The position numbers and the translations under genes were made by a program. Shown here piece after piece: positions 29,066 through 56,967 of a stretch of DNA of 64,000 nucleotides. Below the pieces are notes generated by a model. That model had not been told where the DNA came from. It saw nothing but the letters and a program-made list of their open reading frames with translations, and did not search any database. Source of the stretch: Escherichia coli (GTDB lineage: Bacteria > Pseudomonadota > Gammaproteobacteria > Enterobacterales > Enterobacteriaceae); assembly GCF_036507355.1 (NCBI RefSeq), contig NZ_AP027877.1; one strand, 5' to 3'. Within the stretch, counting starts at the first letter, position 1. Each line of letters opens with the position of its first letter.

Positions 29066-29120
29066 GGTGATGCTGCCAACTTACTGATTTAGTGTATGAT
29101 GGTGTTTTTGAGGTGCTCCA

Positions 29121-29396
29121 GTGGCTTCTGTTTCTATCAGCTGTCCCTCCTGTTCAGCTACTGACGGGGTGGTGCGTAACGGCAAAAGCACCGCCGGACA
29201 TCAGCGCTATCTCTGCTCTCACTGCCGTAAAACATGGCAACTGCAGTTCACTTACACCGCTTCTCAACCCGGTACGCACCAGAAAATCATTGATATGGCC
29301 ATGAATGGCGTTGGATGCCGGGCAACAGCCCGCATTATGGGCGTTGGCCTCAACACGATTTTACGTCACTTAAAAAACTCAGGCCGCAGTCGGTAA
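29121..29396 (+). CDS. insA: IS1 InsA
   Basis: 91-aa [43 protein letters not shown]... Confidence 0.95.
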
Positions 29397-29818
29397 CCTC
29401 GCGCATACAGCCGGGCAGTGACGTCATCGTCTGCGCGGAAATGGACGAACAGTGGGGCTATGTCGGGGCTAAATCGCGCCAGCGCTGGCTGTTTTACGCG
29501 TATGACAGGCTCCGGAAGACGGTTGTTGCGCACGTATTCGGTGAACGCACGATGGCGACGCTGGGGCGTCTTATGAGCCTGCTGTCACCCTTTGACGTGG
29601 TGATATGGATGACGGATGGCTGGCCGCTGTATGAATCCCGCCTGAAGGGAAAGCTGCACGTAATCAGCAAGCGATATACGCAGCGAATTGAGCGGCATAA
29701 CCTGAATCTGAGGCAGCACCTGGCACGGCTGGGACGGAAGTCGCTGTCGTTCTCAAAATCGGTGGAGCTGCATGACAAAGTCATCGGGCATTATCTGAAC
29801 ATAAAACACTATCAATAA
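29315..29818 (+). CDS. insB: IS1 InsB frame, expressed as the InsAB' transposase by -1 frameshift
   Basis: InsB reading frame; A6 slippery run at 29372-29377 inside the insA 3' end. The 5' boundary is frame-defined only. Confidence 0.85.
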
Positions 29819-29924
29819 GTTGGAGTCATTACCCAGCTTGCTGACGGCTTGAAGAGAGTCACAGTATCTTGTGCAACATTATTGGAAAGAGTGAGGGGCG
29901 AGGTAGCGAAGCGGAAAAATGTTA

Positions 29925-44704: not shown

Positions 44705-44909
44705 GACAGTCTTAGTCTTTAAGTTGAGAAGGATGGGAGAAACTTGCTTTCTGGGCGCACTGCCGGAAAGCGAATCCGGTATTACGAAAGTGGTGGTGCC
44801 TCGCTCTAAGGATAGGTGACATCGAAAAAGCGTGCAGAGGAATGTGTGCTTGTGTCTCAGCCCAACGTGAGTGCCTGTTTTTGAGTCGTTGAGTTCTACA
44901 GTCCAAAGT

Positions 44910-44923
44910 GCTGAAACCATTCA
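44910..44923. promoter_or_regulatory. Cra (FruR)-like box upstream of pykF
   Basis: GCTGAAACCATTCA against consensus GCTGAAACGTTTCA. Confidence 0.4.
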
Positions 44924-45260
44924 AGAGTCAATTGGCGCGTATTATACGCTGAAATTAATCCAAAAGGAAAACAAAAACAGCGTTTCAAAAAATATACAAC
45001 TTGTTAGACAATAAATTGTTATCAAAGATTTAACGTTCCAGGAAAAAGGTTACGCAAAAACTTCGCTGTTTGCGCAACGTCTGGTGCCGAAGTTGTCAGT
45101 GTGAGGATAAGTGAAAGTTCATCCGGTGTATAAATATATCATCGCTCAATTGCTACAGTTAAAATAATTTATCGCGTTATTTGTCTGATTTTGTTTGATT
45201 TTTGTTTAATTGGTTAGATTGATATATGCTGATAGTTGGCATGATAAATAGGTATAAAGA

Positions 45261-45470
45261 ATGGGAAATCGGACAAAAGAGGATGAACTGTACCGAGAAA
45301 TGTGCAGAGTTGTCGGTAAAGTTGTGCTGGAAATGCGCGATCTGGGGCAGGAACCAAAGCATATTGTTATCGCAGGCGTATTACGTACAGCATTAGCCAA
45401 TAAACGCATTCAGCGCAGTGAGCTGGAAAAGCAGGCGATGGAAACCGTCATTAACGCACTGGTAAAATGA
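45261..45470 (+). CDS. fumD: Small fumarase-like protein (YdhZ)
   Basis: 69-aa MGNRTKEDELYREMCRVVGKVVLEMRDLGQEPKHIVIAG... Confidence 0.8.
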   Translation: MGNRTKEDELYREMCRVVGKVVLEMRDLGQEPKHIVIAGVLRTALANKRIQRSELEKQAMETVINALVK

Positions 45471-45710
45471 CCATTCAGGATGAGGCGGTAAGCTTCATCC
45501 TGATATTCTTGCTTCAGTTGCGGTCCAGTTAATCATTCTAAATAACAACTGCTGAAATTATACGAATTTCGGTATGTATTTTAATTTATAGCGATAATGT
45601 TATTTTTATTTTCTGCAATGAACGTCACAAATAATTGTCGCTTAAGTTAAATTTATTTCAAATGATAATAAATATCAGTTCACTTATAATTTCTTGCTTT
45701 GTAATTTTAA

Positions 45711-45724
45711 TTGATAACGATCAA
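45711..45724 (+). promoter_or_regulatory. Consensus FNR box upstream of ydhY
   Basis: TTGATAACGATCAA is a perfect TTGAT-N4-ATCAA, about 200 bp upstream of the ydhY ATG. Confidence 0.75.
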
Positions 45725-45925
45725 TGTTAAGGGCTCAGAATAATCACATTATTTTTTCTCCTAACCATAAAGGATTAGTTTATCGGCGTTAAATCTTTTC
45801 TCATACACTATCAGGTTAGGGAAAATATCTGGTGTTGAGGACAGAGTCAGCAGCGTATTAGTTGAATGCTTAATATCAGTCTGCTGAATTGTCAGCACTG
45901 TGTTTGCGAAGAGGATGCGAAATAA

Positions 45926-48675
<2,750 letters not shown>

Positions 48676-48678
48676 GGA

Positions 48679-49326
48679 ATGGGTAAGATGAACCATCAGG
48701 ATGAATTGCCGTTAGCGAAAGTCAGCGAAGTTGACGAGGCGAAGCGGCAATGGTTGCAGGGGATGCGTCACCCCGTTGATACGGTAACCGAACCAGAACC
48801 GGCTGAAATCCTGGCAGAGTTCATTCGCCAGCATTCTGTGGCTGGGCAGCTGGTGGCGCGCGCCGTGTTTCTCTCGCCACCCTATTCAGTTGCAGAAGAG
48901 GAACTGTCAGTTTTGCTGGAAAGCATTAAGCAGAACGGAGACTACGCGGATATCGCTTGTATGACGGGAAGTCAGGATGATTACTATTACTCAACGCAGG
49001 CCATGAGTGAAAACTACGCGGCGATGTCTTTGCAAGTTGTGGAGCAGGACATTTGTCGCGCCATTGCACACGCCGTTCGTTTTGAGTGCCAGACGTATCC
49101 TCGTCCTTACAAAGTCGCCATGCTGATGCAAGCGCCATATTACTTCCAGGAAGCGCAGATTGAAGCCGCGATCGCCGCGATGGATGTTGCACCTGAATAT
49201 GCCGATATACGGCAGGTGGAGTCATCGACGGCGGTGTTGTACTTGTTTAGCGAGCGATTTATGACCTATGGCAAGGCTTATGGCTTATGCGAATGGTTCG
49301 AGGTAGAGCAGTTTCAGAACCCCTGA
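48679..49326 (+). CDS. ydhW: Protein of unknown function
   Basis: 215 aa; position and sequence within the ydhY-T cluster. Confidence 0.8.
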   Translation: MGKMNHQDELPLAKVSEVDEAKRQWLQGMRHPVDTVTEPEPAEILAEFIRQHSVAGQLVARAVFLSPPYSVAEEELSVLLESIKQNGDYADIACMTGSQDDYYYSTQAMSENYAAMSLQVVEQDICRAIAHAVRFECQTYPRPYKVAMLMQAPYYFQEAQIEAAIAAMDVAPEYADIRQVESSTAVLYLFSERFMTYGKAYGLCEWFEVEQFQNP

Positions 49327-49389
49327 AATTTCAGGGAGATGTCATGGATAGGGTGGACAGTTGCAGCCACTGCATTAGGGGATAATCAG

Positions 49390-50058
49390 ATGTCCTTCAC
49401 TCGACGCAAATTTGTTCTGGGGATGGGAACAGTAATCTTTTTTACTGGTTCTGCGTCTTCTCTGTTAGCGAACACGAGGCAAGAAAAGGAAGTTCGGTAT
49501 GCCATGATTCATGACGAGTCACGGTGCAATGGCTGTAATATTTGCGCCCGCGCATGCCGTAAAACTAACCACGTCCCCGCTCAGGGAAGCCGTTTATCGA
49601 TAGCACACATTCCAGTCACCGATAACGACAACGAAACGCAGTATCACTTTTTTCGCCAGTCATGTCAGCACTGCGAAGATGCTCCGTGCATCGACGTATG
49701 CCCGACAGGGGCGTCGTGGCGTGATGAGCAGGGGATCGTGCGGGTAGAAAAATCGCAGTGCATCGGCTGCAGTTATTGCATTGGCGCTTGTCCGTACCAG
49801 GTTCGCTACCTTAACCCTGTCACTAAAGTGGCAGATAAATGTGATTTCTGCGCTGAGTCCCGACTGGCAAAAGGCTTTCCGCCCATTTGCGTCAGCGCCT
49901 GCCCGGAACACGCATTGATCTTTGGTCGCGAAGATAGCCCAGAAATTCAGGCGTGGTTGCAGGATAATAAATACTATCAATATCAGCTACCTGGTGCCGG
50001 GAAACCGCATCTGTATCGCCGGTTCGGTCAACATTTGATTAAAAAGGAAAATGTATGA
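49390..50058 (+). CDS. ydhX: Tat-exported 4Fe-4S ferredoxin-like protein
   Basis: 222 aa from MSFTRRKFVLGMGT... (twin-arginine-like signal) with four Cys clusters; track ORF extends 17 codons upstream. Confidence 0.85.
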   Translation: MSFTRRKFVLGMGTVIFFTGSASSLLANTRQEKEVRYAMIHDESRCNGCNICARACRKTNHVPAQGSRLSIAHIPVTDNDNETQYHFFRQSCQHCEDAPCIDVCPTGASWRDEQGIVRVEKSQCIGCSYCIGACPYQVRYLNPVTKVADKCDFCAESRLAKGFPPICVSACPEHALIFGREDSPEIQAWLQDNKYYQYQLPGAGKPHLYRRFGQHLIKKENV

Positions 50059-50840
50059 ACCCGTCGCAACATGCTGAACAGTTTCAGAGCCAGTTAGCGA
50101 ACTATGTGCCACAGTTCACTCCCGAATTTTGGCCGGTGTGGTTGATCATTGCCGGAGTATTGCTGGTTGGGATGTGGTTGGTGCTGGGGCTGCACGCCTT
50201 GCTTCGTGCTCGTGGCGTGAAGAAATCAGCCACCGATCATGGTGAGAAGATTTATCTTTACAGCAAAGCGGTCAGATTATGGCACTGGTCGAATGCGTTA
50301 CTCTTTGTATTGTTGCTGGCAAGTGGGCTGATAAATCACTTTGCGATGGTGGGCGCAACTGCGGTTAAAAGTCTGGTTGCGGTGCATGAAGTTTGCGGAT
50401 TTTTGTTACTGGCATGCTGGCTCGGCTTTGTGCTGATCAATGCCGTTGGGGATAATGGTCACCACTATCGCATTCGTCGTCAGGGGTGGCTGGAACGAGC
50501 GGCAAAACAAACGCGATTTTATTTGTTTGGCATTATGCAGGGGGAAGAACATCCTTTCCCGGCAACAACCCAGTCTAAATTTAATCCCTTACAGCAGGTC
50601 GCCTATGTTGGTGTCATGTATGGATTGCTGCCGTTGTTACTATTGACGGGGCTGCTGTGTCTCTATCCGCAAGCCGTGGGAGATGTGTTTCCTGGCGTTA
50701 GATACTGGTTATTGCAGGCGCATTTTGCTCTGGCATTTATAAGCCTCTTTTTTATCTTCGGTCATCTTTATCTTTGCACCACGGGGCGTACGCCACACGA
50801 AACCTTTAAAAGCATGGTCGATGGCTATCACCGGCACTAA
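50055..50840 (+). CDS. ydhU: Membrane cytochrome b-like subunit (PhsC-like)
   Basis: 261-aa polytopic membrane protein; 4-bp overlap with ydhX. Confidence 0.85.
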   Translation: MNPSQHAEQFQSQLANYVPQFTPEFWPVWLIIAGVLLVGMWLVLGLHALLRARGVKKSATDHGEKIYLYSKAVRLWHWSNALLFVLLLASGLINHFAMVGATAVKSLVAVHEVCGFLLLACWLGFVLINAVGDNGHHYRIRRQGWLERAAKQTRFYLFGIMQGEEHPFPATTQSKFNPLQQVAYVGVMYGLLPLLLLTGLLCLYPQAVGDVFPGVRYWLLQAHFALAFISLFFIFGHLYLCTTGRTPHETFKSMVDGYHRH

Positions 50841-50843
50841 CGA

Positions 50844-51656
50844 ATGATCATTACACGAGCAGACCTGCGAGAATGGCGTATCGGAGCGGTGATGTATCGC
50901 TGGTTCCTGCGCCATTTCCCACGCGGCGGTAGTTATGCCGATATTCATCATGCACTGATTGAGGAAGGATATACGGACTGGGCGGAGAGTCTTGTTGAGT
51001 ATGCGTGGAAAAAATGGCTGGCTGATGAAAACTTCGCGCATCAGGAAGTTTCCTCTATGCAAAAACTGGCCACAGACCCCGGAGAGATACCATTTTGCAG
51101 TCAGTTTGCCCGCAGCGACGATCATGCTCGCATCGGCTGTTGTGAGGATAACGCCCGAATCGCAACCGCTGGGTATGCCGCGCAAATTGCGAGTATGGGT
51201 TATAGCGTGCGGATTGGAAGTGTCGGCTTTAACAGTCACATTGGCAGCTCCGGTGAACGCGCACGGGTTGCTGTAACCGGTAATTCTTCGCGGATAAGCA
51301 GCGCTGGAGATAGTAGTCGGATTGCGAATACCGGAATGCGAGTACGCGTTTGTACATTGGGTGAACGATGTCATGTCGCCAGTAATGGTGACCTGGTGCA
51401 AATCGCCAGCTTTGGCGCAAACGCCAGAATTGCCAACAGCGGCGACAATGTACACATCATTGCCAGCGGTGAAAATTCAACGGTAGTGAGCACGGGCGTG
51501 GTCGACTCAATTATTCTCGGGCCAGGGGGCAGCGCCGCACTGGCATATCATGACGGCGAAAGAGTTCGCTTCGCCGTCGCCATTGAAGGTGAAAACAATA
51601 TTCGAGCCGGAGTCCGCTATCGTCTTAATGAACAGCATCAGTTTGTTGAGTGCTGA
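50844..51656 (+). CDS. ydhT: Repeat protein of unknown function (last gene of ydhYVWXUT)
   Basis: 270 aa; the C-terminal two thirds consist of nonapeptide tandem repeats. Confidence 0.85.
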   Translation: MIITRADLREWRIGAVMYRWFLRHFPRGGSYADIHHALIEEGYTDWAESLVEYAWKKWLADENFAHQEVSSMQKLATDPGEIPFCSQFARSDDHARIGCCEDNARIATAGYAAQIASMGYSVRIGSVGFNSHIGSSGERARVAVTGNSSRISSAGDSSRIANTGMRVRVCTLGERCHVASNGDLVQIASFGANARIANSGDNVHIIASGENSTVVSTGVVDSIILGPGGSAALAYHDGERVRFAVAIEGENNIRAGVRYRLNEQHQFVEC

Positions 51657-51667
51657 TAGCTTTACCT

Positions 51668-53272
51668 TTAATCAAACGAAAGACGCCGACGAGCACGGGA
51701 TGCAGGCTTTACGACCGCCCGAGCCATCGCCTCACCAATTTCTGCACATGCCGTAAGTCCCTGAACGAAAGGCTGGTCGTGCATCAACCAGGGCAACGCG
51801 CCGAACGCTACGCGCCCACGAATATCTTCGGGTTGCTGTAACGTATAATCTTCGCCAACATCAGGGATTTCATCCCCTGTTTTCTGTAATTGTTCGCGTA
51901 GTCCATGGAAAGGAATATCTTTCATTTTAAGCGGACGCTGCCCGCGGGCATCAATAAAAACGTCAAACGAGTAGCTGTTGTCTTCCGTTTTCAGGACGGT
52001 GCGCGACTCATTAATTTCCATTTTGTAGTCTTCACCGAGGGCGAGAATATGAATGATTCCCGCTTCACGTAAGGCAAGTAGGCGACGAATAGACTCTGAA
52101 GGGATTGCCGCATAATTATCGATGAAAACCCGGGCAAGGCCTTTACTGAACCGTTTATGGTCGTGTTCATTCAGATGTGGAACAATTTCCTGTACTGCTT
52201 CATGCAGGCGCAGAATGACATAACGCCAGGGAACAGTATGTTTTTCTCGTTTATTGCGTTCGACTTCCTGGAGATTTTTTTCTGCCCAGTCAAATGGGTC
52301 GCGTTGTTTGCGCTCGGCAAACCAGGCTTGAGCAAAGAAATCGACATTCAGGCTCTCTAAGGCTATGCGTTGGCTCCAGTCTGGATCAGCAAACTTGATT
52401 TCCTCTACTATCAATCTAAATACCCGATCCAAAAGGCCATATTCGCCTTTTTGAATCTCAGCATTTAATGCCTGATCAGTGACGATGTGTAAGGGCTCGT
52501 AGGGAATAGGGCAATAGAAATCGGCTTCGGGTAAAATACCCGTGCGCGACATTAACGTAATATTTAGCTTTTCACTTGCGTTATCGCGGTGAAAAACGAC
52601 GTGTTGTTTATCATCTTCAATGAACGAACCATGCTGAATTGCCACTGCCATTGCCGCATCCAGTCCGCTCAAGGATGTTCCCATAATACCCACGTTACAC
52701 GCATCGACCTTTGCTTCCATCAGGCCTGACCACGGGCTGGGAAAATACGTTCGGATTGCTTCTTCTTCATCAGGCCAGACGTGACCCGTGGCAATCACCG
52801 CTAAATCAAACGTCTCGCTGGGTAAATCCTGATTTGTAGCGAGCATGACGCCAGCATTTGTAATTTGCAGATCGGTAACCTGGCATGATTCATAAACAGC
52901 CACTGCAAATTTTTGCTGTCGTGCCTGGTCTACTAATCGTAAAAATTGATCGCGGAAATATTCGCCCAGCAGAATTCGCGGTAAAAACTGACGATCGTGC
53001 AAGGTTTCTTTTTTAACGCCATAACGCTGGAGATGGCTGGCTTCTTGCTTTTGTAGCCATTCGAGATACGTACAATAAATCGGCGGTATTTCAATACTGG
53101 CAATATTTGCCAGCATCATTTTTGAGTTTTCCTCATCACTGTATGGCATCCCGACACCGGCCACATCAGCCTGCTCGAAGATAGAAATAGAAAGTGGAGT
53201 TTGTTGCTGTAGAAGCGAGAATAAGGTGTAGATCCCCGTAGGCCCGGCACCTACAATAGCAATTTTTTTCAT
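51668..53272 (-). CDS. ydhS: FAD/NAD(P)-binding protein of unknown function
   Basis: 534 aa with N-terminal Rossmann motif IAIVGAGPTG. Confidence 0.85.
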   Translation of the reverse strand: MKKIAIVGAGPTGIYTLFSLLQQQTPLSISIFEQADVAGVGMPYSDEENSKMMLANIASIEIPPIYCTYLEWLQKQEASHLQRYGVKKETLHDRQFLPRILLGEYFRDQFLRLVDQARQQKFAVAVYESCQVTDLQITNAGVMLATNQDLPSETFDLAVIATGHVWPDEEEAIRTYFPSPWSGLMEAKVDACNVGIMGTSLSGLDAAMAVAIQHGSFIEDDKQHVVFHRDNASEKLNITLMSRTGILPEADFYCPIPYEPLHIVTDQALNAEIQKGEYGLLDRVFRLIVEEIKFADPDWSQRIALESLNVDFFAQAWFAERKQRDPFDWAEKNLQEVERNKREKHTVPWRYVILRLHEAVQEIVPHLNEHDHKRFSKGLARVFIDNYAAIPSESIRRLLALREAGIIHILALGEDYKMEINESRTVLKTEDNSYSFDVFIDARGQRPLKMKDIPFHGLREQLQKTGDEIPDVGEDYTLQQPEDIRGRVAFGALPWLMHDQPFVQGLTACAEIGEAMARAVVKPASRARRRLSFD

Positions 53273-53397
53273 TGTTACTTACCTGTACGCATTCTTTCGA
53301 ATTTAGTGTTATCAGATAAGTTTGGTTGAAATTTTTAGAATTTGAGAAATTTCAGACAGGGATGAAAAGGGCGCTAACCGCCCTTGATTAAAATCTG

Positions 53398-53703
53398 TCA
53401 GGCGAGTTTTGCCTGATTGATTTGACTCAGTGGCTCATTGACATCGAAAACTTTGGCGACAACTTCCTCAACGCCGAGATTTTTCAGTCGGGCAGTGTGT
53501 TTTTCCAGATAGGCAAGGGCGCTTTTTTCATCAGTGAAAAGGTAGATCCCACCGGCTTCGTGGTTCTTTTCACTTTCGGTCCATACCTTCCACAGAAAAC
53601 CAGGTTCCTGATTAATCGACTCAGCAAGCGGTTTAAGCTGCTCAGCCATTGCGTCGCCAAATGGGCCATTGAAAGAAAAATGAAGTTGTAACAAAGTTGC
53701 CAT
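53398..53703 (-). CDS. ydhR: Small dimeric alpha+beta barrel protein (putative monooxygenase)
   Basis: 101-aa [41 protein letters not shown]... Confidence 0.85.
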
Positions 53704-53810
53704 AGCGATTCTCCTTCTGATAACGCATACGAAGACAGTGTAAATCTTTTAACGTATTGGATACAGAGAAGAAGCAGAGGGAAAAAGGAGAAGACCAGAT
53801 TAAGAAAATC

Positions 53811-53887
53811 TGGTGCGTCCGAGTGGACTCGAACCACCGACCCCCACCATGTCAAGGTGGTGCTCTAACCAACTGAGCTACGGACGC
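53811..53887 (-). tRNA. valW: tRNA-Val (anticodon GAC)
   Basis: Reverse complement GCGTCCGTAGCTCAGTTGGTTAGAGCACCACCTTGACATGGTGGGGGTCGGTGGTTCGAGTCCACTCGGACGCACCA; valV/valW assignment is by position only. Confidence 0.9.
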
Positions 53888-53891
53888 AGGA

Positions 53892-53968
53892 TGGTGCGTT
53901 CAATTGGACTCGAACCAACGACCCCCACCATGTCAAGGTGGTGCTCTAACCAACTGAGCTATGAACGC
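53892..53968 (-). tRNA. valV: tRNA-Val (anticodon GAC)
   Basis: Reverse complement GCGTTCATAGCTCAGTTGGTTAGAGCACCACCTTGACATGGTGGGGGTCGTTGGTTCGAGTCCAATTGAACGCACCA; 4-bp spacer to the second copy. Confidence 0.9.
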
Positions 53969-53994
53969 AACGTTGTAGGTGACAACGGGGACGA

Positions 53995-54023
53995 ATATTA
54001 GCGGCAGAGTGGGAAGGTGGCAA
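53995..54023 (-). promoter_or_regulatory. Sigma70 promoter of the valVW tRNA pair, with GC-rich discriminator
   Basis: Minus strand TTGCCA-N17-TAATAT followed by TCGTCCCCG. Confidence 0.6.
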
Positions 54024-54275
54024 GAGGCAAAACGTAATTTTCTGCGCTATTTCGACCGTTTGCAGAGCTTTTAAGCAAATTGGCTATATTTTGTTGATTT
54101 GCAAGGGCGATTTTTATTCAGGATCGCATTTACATCTGATACAACCCAATAATTCGTGTATCAGAGTTTAAACAGAGTTGTTTGCCACCATCTCAAATCT
54201 GTCGTGGATAAATCCTCCGTAGCCTTTACACTTAGGTAGCAATAAAGGCACACAGATGCAGCAAAGGAATAAATC

Positions 54276-55532
54276 ATGGGATCTGATGCGAAAAACTTGA
54301 TGAGCGACGGGAATGTGCAAATTGTTAAGACCGGCGAGGTCATTGGCGCGACGCAACTTACTGAAGGCGAGTTGATTGTTGAAGCTGGCGGAAGAGCCGA
54401 AAATACCGTGGTCACGGGGGCTGGCTGGTTGAAAGTGACAACCGGTGGGATCGCCAAATGCACACAGTACGGTAACAATGGCACGCTATCGGTCAGCGAC
54501 GGTGCCATTGCCACAGATATTGTTCAGTCCGAGGGAGGCGCAATTAGTCTCTCTACGCTCGCTACGGTTAATGGCCGCCATCCCGAAGGTGAATTCAGCG
54601 TTGATAAAGGTTATGCCTGCGGTTTGTTGCTGGAAAATGGCGGTAACCTGCGTGTACTGGAAGGCCATCGCGCGGAAAAAATTATTCTCGATCAAGAGGG
54701 CGGCCTGTTGGTCAATGGGACAACCTCAGCGGTCGTGGTAGATGAAGGTGGTGAATTGTTGGTGTATCCAGGTGGGGAAGCCAGCAATTGTGAGATTAAT
54801 CAGGGCGGCGTTTTTATGCTGGCGGGGAAAGCCAATGATACGTTGCTTGCTGGTGGCACCATGAATAATCTCGGTGGTGAAGACTCTGACACTATTGTTG
54901 AGAATGGAGCCATCTATCGTCTGGGGACGGATGGTCTTCAGCTCTACAGTTCCGGTAAGACGCAAAACCTGTCCGTTAATGTGGGTGGTCGGGCTGAAGT
55001 GCATGCCGGTACGCTGGAAAATGCGGTAATACAAGGTGGAACAGTGATCCTGTTGTCACCCACCAGCGCGGACGAAAATTTTGTCGTAGAGGAAGATCGC
55101 GCACCGGTTGAACTGACCGGGAGTGTTGCATTACTGGACGGCGCTTCAATGATTATTGGCTATGGCGCAGATCTGCAACAATCAACGATTACTGTACAGC
55201 AGGGCGGTGTATTGATTCTCGACGGCAGTACGGTAAAAGGTGACAGTGTCACTTTCAGTATTGGTAACATCAATCTGAATGGCGGAAAACTGTGGCTGAT
55301 CACTGGTGCGGCAACGCATGTGCAGCTGAAAGTGAAACGCCTGCGCGGAGAGGGAGCGATTTGCCTGCAAACCAGTGCGAAAGAAATTTCACCTGACTTC
55401 ATCAATGTGAAAGGGGAAGTTACCGGGGATATACACGTTGAGATAACAGATGCCAGTCGGCAAACTCTGTGTAACGCACTGAAACTACAGCCAGACGAAG
55501 ACGGGATTGGCGCAACGCTCCAGCCTGCGTAA
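54276..55532 (+). CDS. ydhQ: Glycine-rich beta-helix-like protein (autotransporter-passenger-like, no obvious beta-barrel)
   Basis: 418 aa with repeated G-G-x-x-x-V/L motifs. Confidence 0.8.
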   Translation: MGSDAKNLMSDGNVQIVKTGEVIGATQLTEGELIVEAGGRAENTVVTGAGWLKVTTGGIAKCTQYGNNGTLSVSDGAIATDIVQSEGGAISLSTLATVNGRHPEGEFSVDKGYACGLLLENGGNLRVLEGHRAEKIILDQEGGLLVNGTTSAVVVDEGGELLVYPGGEASNCEINQGGVFMLAGKANDTLLAGGTMNNLGGEDSDTIVENGAIYRLGTDGLQLYSSGKTQNLSVNVGGRAEVHAGTLENAVIQGGTVILLSPTSADENFVVEEDRAPVELTGSVALLDGASMIIGYGADLQQSTITVQQGGVLILDGSTVKGDSVTFSIGNINLNGGKLWLITGAATHVQLKVKRLRGEGAICLQTSAKEISPDFINVKGEVTGDIHVEITDASRQTLCNALKLQPDEDGIGATLQPA

Positions 55533-55538
55533 AAACAC

Positions 55539-55564
55539 AGGCGCAACCCGCGAAGGTTGCGCCT
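55539..55564. terminator. Hairpin terminator between convergent ydhQ and mdtK
   Basis: aggcgcaacc-cgcgaa-ggttgcgcct. Confidence 0.65.
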
Positions 55565-55572
55565 TGTCTTTA

Positions 55573-56967
<1,395 letters not shown>

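Follow-up and report, generated by a model that had tools for sequence, protein, structure and literature searches.

The tRNAs of the Escherichia coli operons leuQ-leuP-leuV, secG-leuU, valU and lysT are separated from one another by ribonuclease P (RNase P) and not by RNase E, and the same holds for valV-valW of strain K-12 (PMC2190699, PMC4176162). The latter was characterized by Mohanty and Kushner (NAR 2007; PMC2190699), and later reports of the same group treat it as a standard RNase P-dependent substrate (PMC4176162, PMC7049720). The spacers of all these operons are very short and A/U-poor: valV-valW has UCCU, and CUUC, CC and CUC are found in the operons of valU and lysT. These last two end with canonical Rho-independent terminators that RNase P removes first, whereas valV-valW has been described as Rho-terminated, with a trailer that is removed by exonucleases (PMC2190699, PMC4176162). 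Here we describe a stretch of 64,000 nucleotides of the E. coli contig NZ_AP027877.1 (assembly GCF_036507355.1), hereafter the window, for which an original prediction made from the letters alone had proposed two tandem tRNA-Val(GAC) genes on the minus strand, behind a near-consensus, stringent promoter. We consider it practically certain that this locus is the E. coli valV-valW operon, a two-gene transcription unit supplying tRNA-Val(GAC), with the promoter and the RNase P processing known from K-12. The operon, its promoter, its start sites and its processing are already published for the identical K-12 sequence.

Run on the whole window, ARAGORN called exactly two genes, both for tRNA-Val with the anticodon gac and both 77 nt long. 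On the minus strand, valV lies at 53892..53968 and valW at 53811..53887, separated by the 4-nt spacer TCCT (UCCU in the transcript; 53888..53891) described for K-12 (PMC2190699, PMC4176162). Both genes cover the full Rfam tRNA model RF00005 (positions 1-71, E ~4e-14), with 70.1 bits for valV and 69.6 bits for valW, far above the gathering score of 29. They have the anticodon GAC at positions 34-36, the discriminator base A73 and an encoded CCA, the 3' ends of both reading ...CGCACCA. The two predicted genes, 4 bp apart, were thus found by both methods where they had been proposed.

The prediction that the copies differ at a few stem positions was also correct. Six of the 77 positions differ (5, 7, 51, 65, 67 and 69; 92% identity), and the six correspond to three compensatory pairs, T-A to C-G at 5:69, A-T to G-C at 7:67 and T-A to G-C at 51:65. 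Two of the changed pairs are in the acceptor stem and one is in the T stem, and all six differences keep Watson-Crick pairing. With the same anticodon and 92% identity, one copy might look redundant, and one might ask whether it is a decaying duplicate, i.e. a tRNA pseudogene. One complete E. coli genome, that of strain CEC96047 (NZ_AP026104.1), appears to have a single tRNA-Val at the locus, with 107 bp matched in two pieces, which suggests recombinational collapse of the tandem pair, or an assembly artefact. We give the pseudogene explanation almost no credence. It is opposed by the intact pairing, by scores of about 70 bits for both copies and by the co-occurrence of both exact sequences in at least 43 species of several genera. 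Moreover, tRNA-Val2A and tRNA-Val2B were reportedly both sequenced as RNA species by Yaniv and Barrell in 1971. In K-12, northern blots show both tRNAs as products of the operon (PMC2190699, PMC7049720), and northern blots and aminoacylation document the production of Val2 from valV and valW (PMC2190699, PMC4176162, PMC7049720). The tRNA-Val(GAC) ('valine isotype 2') would read the GUC and GUU codons by G34 wobble.

At the equivalent position, K-12 MG1655 carries the annotated genes valV (b1665) and valW (b1666), each identical to its counterpart here, with the same neighbours ydhQ, ydhR, ydhS and mdtK. Between positions 54290 and 53690, only two single-base differences in 601 bases separate the two strains, one at 54108, upstream of the conserved promoter block described below, and the other at 53774, in the pyrimidine tract of the trailer. 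The genes, spacer, leader, -35 and -10 elements and discriminator are all identical to those of K-12. More generally, the surrounding 1.1-kb region is up to 100% identical to its counterpart in complete E. coli chromosomes, with 5396 of 5426 complete genomes covering at least 80% of its length. For the 241-nt stretch that comprises the promoter, both genes and the trailer hairpin, 5424 of them reach that coverage, and identity is at least 99% in 5416. We found nothing that contradicts the identification as valV-valW.

The promoter elements were found as predicted, and the hexamers are those published for K-12 (PMC2190699). On the minus strand, the -35 hexamer TTGCCA (54018..54023; five of six matches to TTGACA) precedes the -10 hexamer TAATAT (53995..54000; four of six matches to TATAAT) by 17 nt, followed by the G+C-rich discriminator TCGTCCCCG (53986..53994). 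In K-12, primer extension gave 5' ends at two C residues, which precede mature valV by 18 and 19 nt, and these ends were attributed to a sigma-70 promoter whose -35 element matches at 5/6 positions and whose -10 element matches at 4/6 (PMC2190699). In window coordinates, these two adjacent C residues correspond to about 53987-53988, within the discriminator and 7-8 nt past the -10 element, the exact base depending on the counting convention of the paper. In the account favoured here, transcripts from this sigma-70 promoter begin at these two C residues, about 19 nt ahead of valV.

To this mapping, comparison across species adds conservation. Of the 112 species loci with enough upstream sequence, among the matches listed, 105 have TAATAT within the 80 nt that precede the first tRNA. 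An alignment of 102 distinct Enterobacterales upstream sequences, anchored only on TAATAT, gave the consensus CTTGCca-N17-TAATATTCGTCCCCGttGtc. CTTGCC and the discriminator TCGTCCCCG are at least 90% conserved in this set, and the 17-nt spacer is essentially free to vary. In this pattern, the promoter elements named above leave a clear phylogenetic footprint. The -35 element, although it departs from the consensus, the -10 element and the discriminator are nearly invariant across a whole bacterial order.

Further upstream, the same alignment revealed a conserved block at 54024..54067 (minus strand) with an A-tract and a T-tract, AGAAAATTACGTTTTGCC and GCAAACGGTCGAAAT, whose consensus is '..gcaat.g.g.g.aat.....agaAAa.tgc..tTTtcc.'. 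Homology to genera in which mdtK abuts the tRNAs reaches only to about position 54067. The block might represent an UP element or an activator-binding region. The conserved blocks, which extend to at most about 80 nt upstream of the start site, match the UP consensus only partially, and our literature search found no Fis or UP-element experiment on the valV-valW promoter.

With its sub-optimal hexamers, G+C-rich discriminator and A/T-rich upstream region, the valV-valW promoter is similar to stringent sigma-70 promoters. The rrnB P1 and tyrT promoters resemble it in such features. Unlike rrnB P1, which has a 16-nt spacer, the valV-valW promoter has a 17-nt spacer and starts with C. G+C-rich discriminators are linked to sensitivity to guanosine tetraphosphate (ppGpp) and DksA. 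On this basis, the label 'stringent', in the sense of negative control by ppGpp/DksA and of growth-rate control, can reasonably be inferred for valV-valW from the discriminator alone. Among such promoters, that of argX is inhibited by ppGpp (PMC5137449).

The primary transcript would comprise, in this order, a hairpin leader, valV, the UCCU spacer, valW and a trailer. The leader, of about 19-20 nt (53969..53988, minus strand), is predicted to fold into a hairpin with the arms CGTTGT and ACAACG at 53987-53971, at the extreme 5' end of the primary transcript, and is removed by RNase P (PMC2190699). Stems of at least 5 bp are found in 81% of 57 distinct Enterobacterales leaders, against 22% of shuffled sequences, and the arms covary, with pairs such as GTTGT/ACAAC, GCTGTC/GACAGC and GTTGC/GCAAC.

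RNase P would cut 5' of each tRNA, which would mature the 5' ends, and this would be the sole step that separates valV from valW, since the spacer is too short and too A/U-poor for RNase E. In K-12, RNase P alone separates the two tRNAs, and RNase E has no site in the UCCU spacer (PMC2190699); the dicistronic valV-valW precursor builds up when RNase P is inactivated (PMC2190699, PMC7049720). In the Term-seq data (PMC7815308 supplement), a very strong 3' end falls exactly at the CCA of valV (K-12 position 1746511). The trailer would be trimmed in the 3'-to-5' direction by polynucleotide phosphorylase (PNPase) as well as RNase II, the CCA ends being genomically encoded. Trailer removal by these two enzymes was reported for K-12, where ydhR is not co-transcribed with the tRNAs (PMC2190699). 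Altogether, the published K-12 data contradict non-expression of the two tRNAs or a lack of charging with valine, the use of a different promoter and RNase P-independent separation of the tRNAs.

Two features of the trailer bear on how transcription ends. The first is a hairpin at 53794..53814 (minus strand), detected by a terminator-like scan and by folding, of the form ACCAGATT-ttctt-AATCTGGT. Its 5' arm opens with the ACCA end of valW and its 3' arm, AATCTGGT, is at 53801-53794. The scan gives it eight pairs, three of them G-C. It has a predicted energy of -9.4 kcal/mol and abuts the acceptor stem in the predicted fold of the precursor, and CUUCUCCUUUUU follows it. The second feature is a pyrimidine-rich tract with more C than G (CTTCTCCTTTTTCCCTCTGCTTCTTCTCTG...; 53751..53793, minus strand), which would suit a Rho-loading region. 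The first 60 nt past valW are rich in C and poor in G, and 40-nt windows starting at 53810, 53800 and 53790 contain 12-14 C, 3-4 G and 19-21 T.

The trailer hairpin is conserved in related species. A perfect stem of at least 7 bp that starts inside GCACCA was found in 25 of 117 species among the matches listed, against 0.5% of shuffled trailers, and the equivalent stems are often longer (GCACCA...TGGTGC, 10-13 bp). Three pairs show compensatory changes, with a covariation score of 0.213 against 0.110 +/- 0.015 in shuffles; as the alignment was picked from hairpin-bearing sequences of related species, these statistics are indicative only. The inner pairs covary, the first base of the trailer and its partner being G:C, U:A or A:U, for example.

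Several points weigh against parts of the account given so far. The promoter hexamers match the consensus at 9 of 12 positions, and the two overlapping matches found compare with 1.4 +/- 1.2 in shuffles. Since the match is thus not above chance, 'near-consensus' was a generous term, and this part of the prediction was overstated. The promoter itself is real, as judged from primer extension (PMC2190699) and conservation across species. Our literature search found no ppGpp/DksA or growth-rate data specific to the valV-valW promoter. At the other end of the operon, the published analysis stated that there is no downstream secondary structure, and Rho-dependent termination was inferred (PMC2190699). 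An 8-bp hairpin followed by CUUCUCCUUUUU right after valW fits uneasily with that statement. In addition, only a pnp rnb mutant showed a precursor that exceeds the dicistronic species by about 35 nt (PMC2190699); it would end near the U-rich tract, which is similarly uneasy with termination by Rho.

The operon might therefore end at a weak intrinsic terminator, made of the ACCA hairpin and CUUCUCCUUUUU, and not by the action of Rho. The hairpin and its tail were flagged by a consensus scan, and the hairpin, with the predicted energy given above, is conserved with covariation in the Enterobacteriaceae. The longer precursor, the only one that bears the trailer, would have its end just past the U-rich tract at +18 to +29. 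Nevertheless, we regard this explanation as rather unlikely. The U-tract is interrupted in E. coli and absent from Enterobacter and Lelliottia, in which AAAUCCUCUUC comes after the hairpin, and the C-rich, G-poor composition of the 60 nt after valW resembles that of a Rho-loading site. The authors of PMC2190699 concluded that termination is Rho-dependent. Furthermore, the stretch from +1 to +47 (K-12 1746590-1746639) has no 3' end listed in the Term-seq data, but one is listed at the start codon of ydhR (K-12 1746701, window position 53702; PMC7815308 supplement), which fits termination further downstream followed by trimming. Rho-dependent termination may still apply to the operon, and the trailer could hold either a Rho-loading site or a weak intrinsic terminator.

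The precursor may nonetheless carry more structure than published, namely two conserved, covarying hairpins in its leader and its trailer, of which the latter might be a functional device; we put this forward tentatively, as somewhat improbable on present evidence. If so, the trailer hairpin, paired with the ACCA end of valW and stacked on its acceptor stem, could keep the CCA out of reach of RNase P or 3' exonucleases, or else it could make RNA polymerase pause or terminate. In both cases it would determine the order of processing, and the view of the operon 3' end as unstructured and purely Rho-dependent would have to be revised. Both conserved hairpins might deserve attention, especially the one whose stem takes in the CCA of valW.

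As a separate observation, the valW-ydhR spacer (53702-53775, minus strand) folds better than shuffled sequences (z = -3.6). Its CU tract is predicted to pair with the Shine-Dalgarno region of ydhR, and the Term-seq end at the ydhR start codon is at the foot of this structure.

The opposite strand of the same region gave an unexpected match to another RNA family. The Rfam model HPnc0260 (RF02194), of a Helicobacter antisense RNA, matches 53687-53849 on the plus strand over its full length. The match lies antisense to valW and its trailer, and its 109.9 bits exceed the gathering score of 59. Matches at the equivalent place were found in four of the seven other genera tested, i.e. in Escherichia albertii (103.5 bits), Proteus (82), Enterobacter (68.3) and Klebsiella (61.3); the Citrobacter, Serratia and Pantoea loci gave none. 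Taken at face value, the full-length score and the equivalent matches in four other taxa might indicate that an antisense small RNA of this family is encoded on the plus strand, across from valW and the spacer between valW and ydhR. Several features make this very improbable. The last 40 positions of the model are the reverse complement of the 3' half of a tRNA, and they also match antisense to valV, with 36.6 bits. Different genes follow the trailers of E. coli and Proteus, and the trailers of E. coli, Proteus, Enterobacter and Klebsiella are alike mainly in being T/C-rich on the sense strand, so that composition may account for the rest of the score. A scan of the plus strand between 53300 and 54400 gave no sigma-70-like promoter. 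Finally, the HPnc0260 RNA of Helicobacter pylori is divergent from ureA and regulated by NikR, an unrelated context. The match is most likely a database by-product of a tRNA-antisense segment combined with compositional similarity.

A pattern scan of one genome per species identified at least 120 loci with tandem tRNA-Val(GAC) genes. The loci listed, among which Salmonella is not represented, span the Enterobacterales and also include Aeromonas, Ferrimonas and Rheinheimera. The arrays hold two to five copies, and the commonest spacer length is 4 nt (27 of about 120 spacers, among the matches listed). Across these loci, isodecoder differences are almost all at paired stem positions. The exact succession of the valV and valW sequences accounts for the at least 43 species mentioned above. 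Among the matches listed, the valW sequence is near-universal in the Enterobacterales and the valV sequence is confined to the Enterobacteriaceae.

The immediate neighbours of the operon are ydhR and ydhS, downstream and on the same strand, and on the other side ydhQ, followed by mdtK, ribE, cfa and punC. The ydhR gene (53398..53703, minus strand) codes for a 101-residue protein of the Pfam ydhR family (3e-42). The divergent gene ydhQ (54276..55532, plus strand), outside of the operon, codes for a 418-residue AIDA-repeat protein (Pfam AIDA 1.2e-28, Pertactin 8e-6). Because tRNA loci are frequent integration sites and ydhQ was thought to have an atypical composition, the original prediction had hinted at an integrated element and had proposed a search for integrase genes and for direct repeats of the tRNA 3' end. 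The composition of ydhQ turned out to be normal, with a G+C fraction of 0.516 and 0.501 at third codon positions (GC3), against window means of 0.514 and 0.545 (standard deviation 0.051 for GC3). Its only unusual feature is a G>C skew (G fraction 0.309, C fraction 0.207), typical of its glycine-rich AIDA repeats.

The two proposed searches were likewise negative. In the annotation of a matching E. coli record, the genes of the window, from infC to purR, all belong to the K-12 backbone, and none is an integrase or phage gene. No further copy of the tRNA 3' end was detected in the 64 kb with 25-mers and 17-mers at up to three mismatches, only the two genes matching, and a direct-repeat search of 30000-64000 revealed no repeat that flanks the tRNA region.

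The comparison of species nevertheless showed that the surroundings of the tRNAs are variable on both sides. Upstream, among the matches listed, 100 of 120 loci have mdtK on the same strand, and in 76 of these 100 the gene stops 139-235 nt short of the first tRNA. Among the genera sampled in those 120 species loci, ydhQ is found at this position only in Escherichia, again among the matches listed. From this comparison of gene orders, ydhQ with its own upstream region (about 54068-55585) is apparently an Escherichia-specific insertion between the 3' end of mdtK and the conserved promoter block. Other genera harbour different, unrelated small cassettes between mdtK and the tRNAs. Inspected by eye, without Pfam, some of their open reading frames (ORFs) have TetR/SDR-like or LysR-like N-termini, and none is a recognizable mobility gene.

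Downstream, pykF lies 342-860 nt past the last tRNA-Val gene in at least 37 species, which belong to the Erwiniaceae, Yersiniaceae and Morganellaceae. In the window, the distance from valW to pykF is 9,106 nt (44705-53810), with ydhR, ydhS, ydhT, ydhU/phsC, ydhX, ydhW, ydhV, ydhY, fumD and ynhH in between. Since ydhS is the very next gene after the tRNAs in Enterobacter, Lelliottia and some Citrobacter, this block is probably not a recent insertion; the E. coli ydhR-ynhH block looks old, with no recognizable mobility machinery. The Pfam families encoded downstream of the Val arrays of other species include pyruvate kinase, L,D-transpeptidase and carbonic anhydrase. No integrase is among the 25 families listed, with at least two members each, for 116 downstream ORFs.

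These data allow one to weigh the idea that the tRNA pair is an occupied integration site, with ydhQ or the genes past valW as a tRNA-targeted island or a prophage remnant. The tRNA-Val position is a known island site, as Salmonella pathogenicity islands SPI-2 of S. enterica and SPI-22 of S. bongori lie alongside tRNA-valV (PMC3158058), at the same chromosomal position, between mdtK with tRNA-Val and pykF. The longer distance to pykF than in other families of Enterobacterales and the changing cargo of the mdtK-tRNA gap, ydhQ in Escherichia and other genes elsewhere, point in the same direction, as do the GC3 values of ydhS and ydhR (0.44-0.45), about two standard deviations below the window mean. 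Nevertheless, unlike at the Salmonella site, the approximately 9.1 kb from ydhR to ynhH are backbone, with no secretion-system island, integrase or attachment (att) repeat. Elements that target tRNA genes insert on the tRNA 3' side, and ydhQ, with its ordinary G+C content and GC3, sits 5' of the tRNAs. The arrangement is fixed in E. coli, as shown by the coverage of the whole 1.1-kb region reported above, and the presence of ydhS right after the tRNAs in several genera argues for an old block. With no second tRNA 3' end or flanking direct repeat in the searches of the window, no integrase or phage gene annotated from infC to purR and no integrase among the families encoded downstream of other arrays, we deem an occupied integration site highly unlikely. 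Thus, the integration hint fails for this window, and it has some substance across genera, where both flanks vary. The valV-valW locus has a variable region on either side, and one of these regions corresponds to the Salmonella SPI-2 site. As the reading of the raw sequence recovered two real tRNA genes and a true promoter, the locus also represents a clean positive control.

In a collection of phage sequences, the only full-length match other than phage-borne tRNA genes is 'Escherichia phage 503046' (CP025887.1), 7.6 kb of which are collinear with window positions 47527-55186, including valV-valW. We considered this entry as a candidate tRNA-integrated element and rejected it, as the 7.6 kb are chromosomal and an IS100 links them to P2-like tail genes. 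The entry probably represents a chimeric or insertion sequence-mediated assembly and not a phage that carries these tRNAs. Elsewhere in the window, an IS1A-like element at 29066-29833, whose two junctions are covered in one place by none of the 5426 complete genomes, stands in place of about 2.2 kb carried by the otherwise 99%-identical strain TB06051. The segment replaced by this element comprises the 5' part of ydiN together with ydiM and ydiL.

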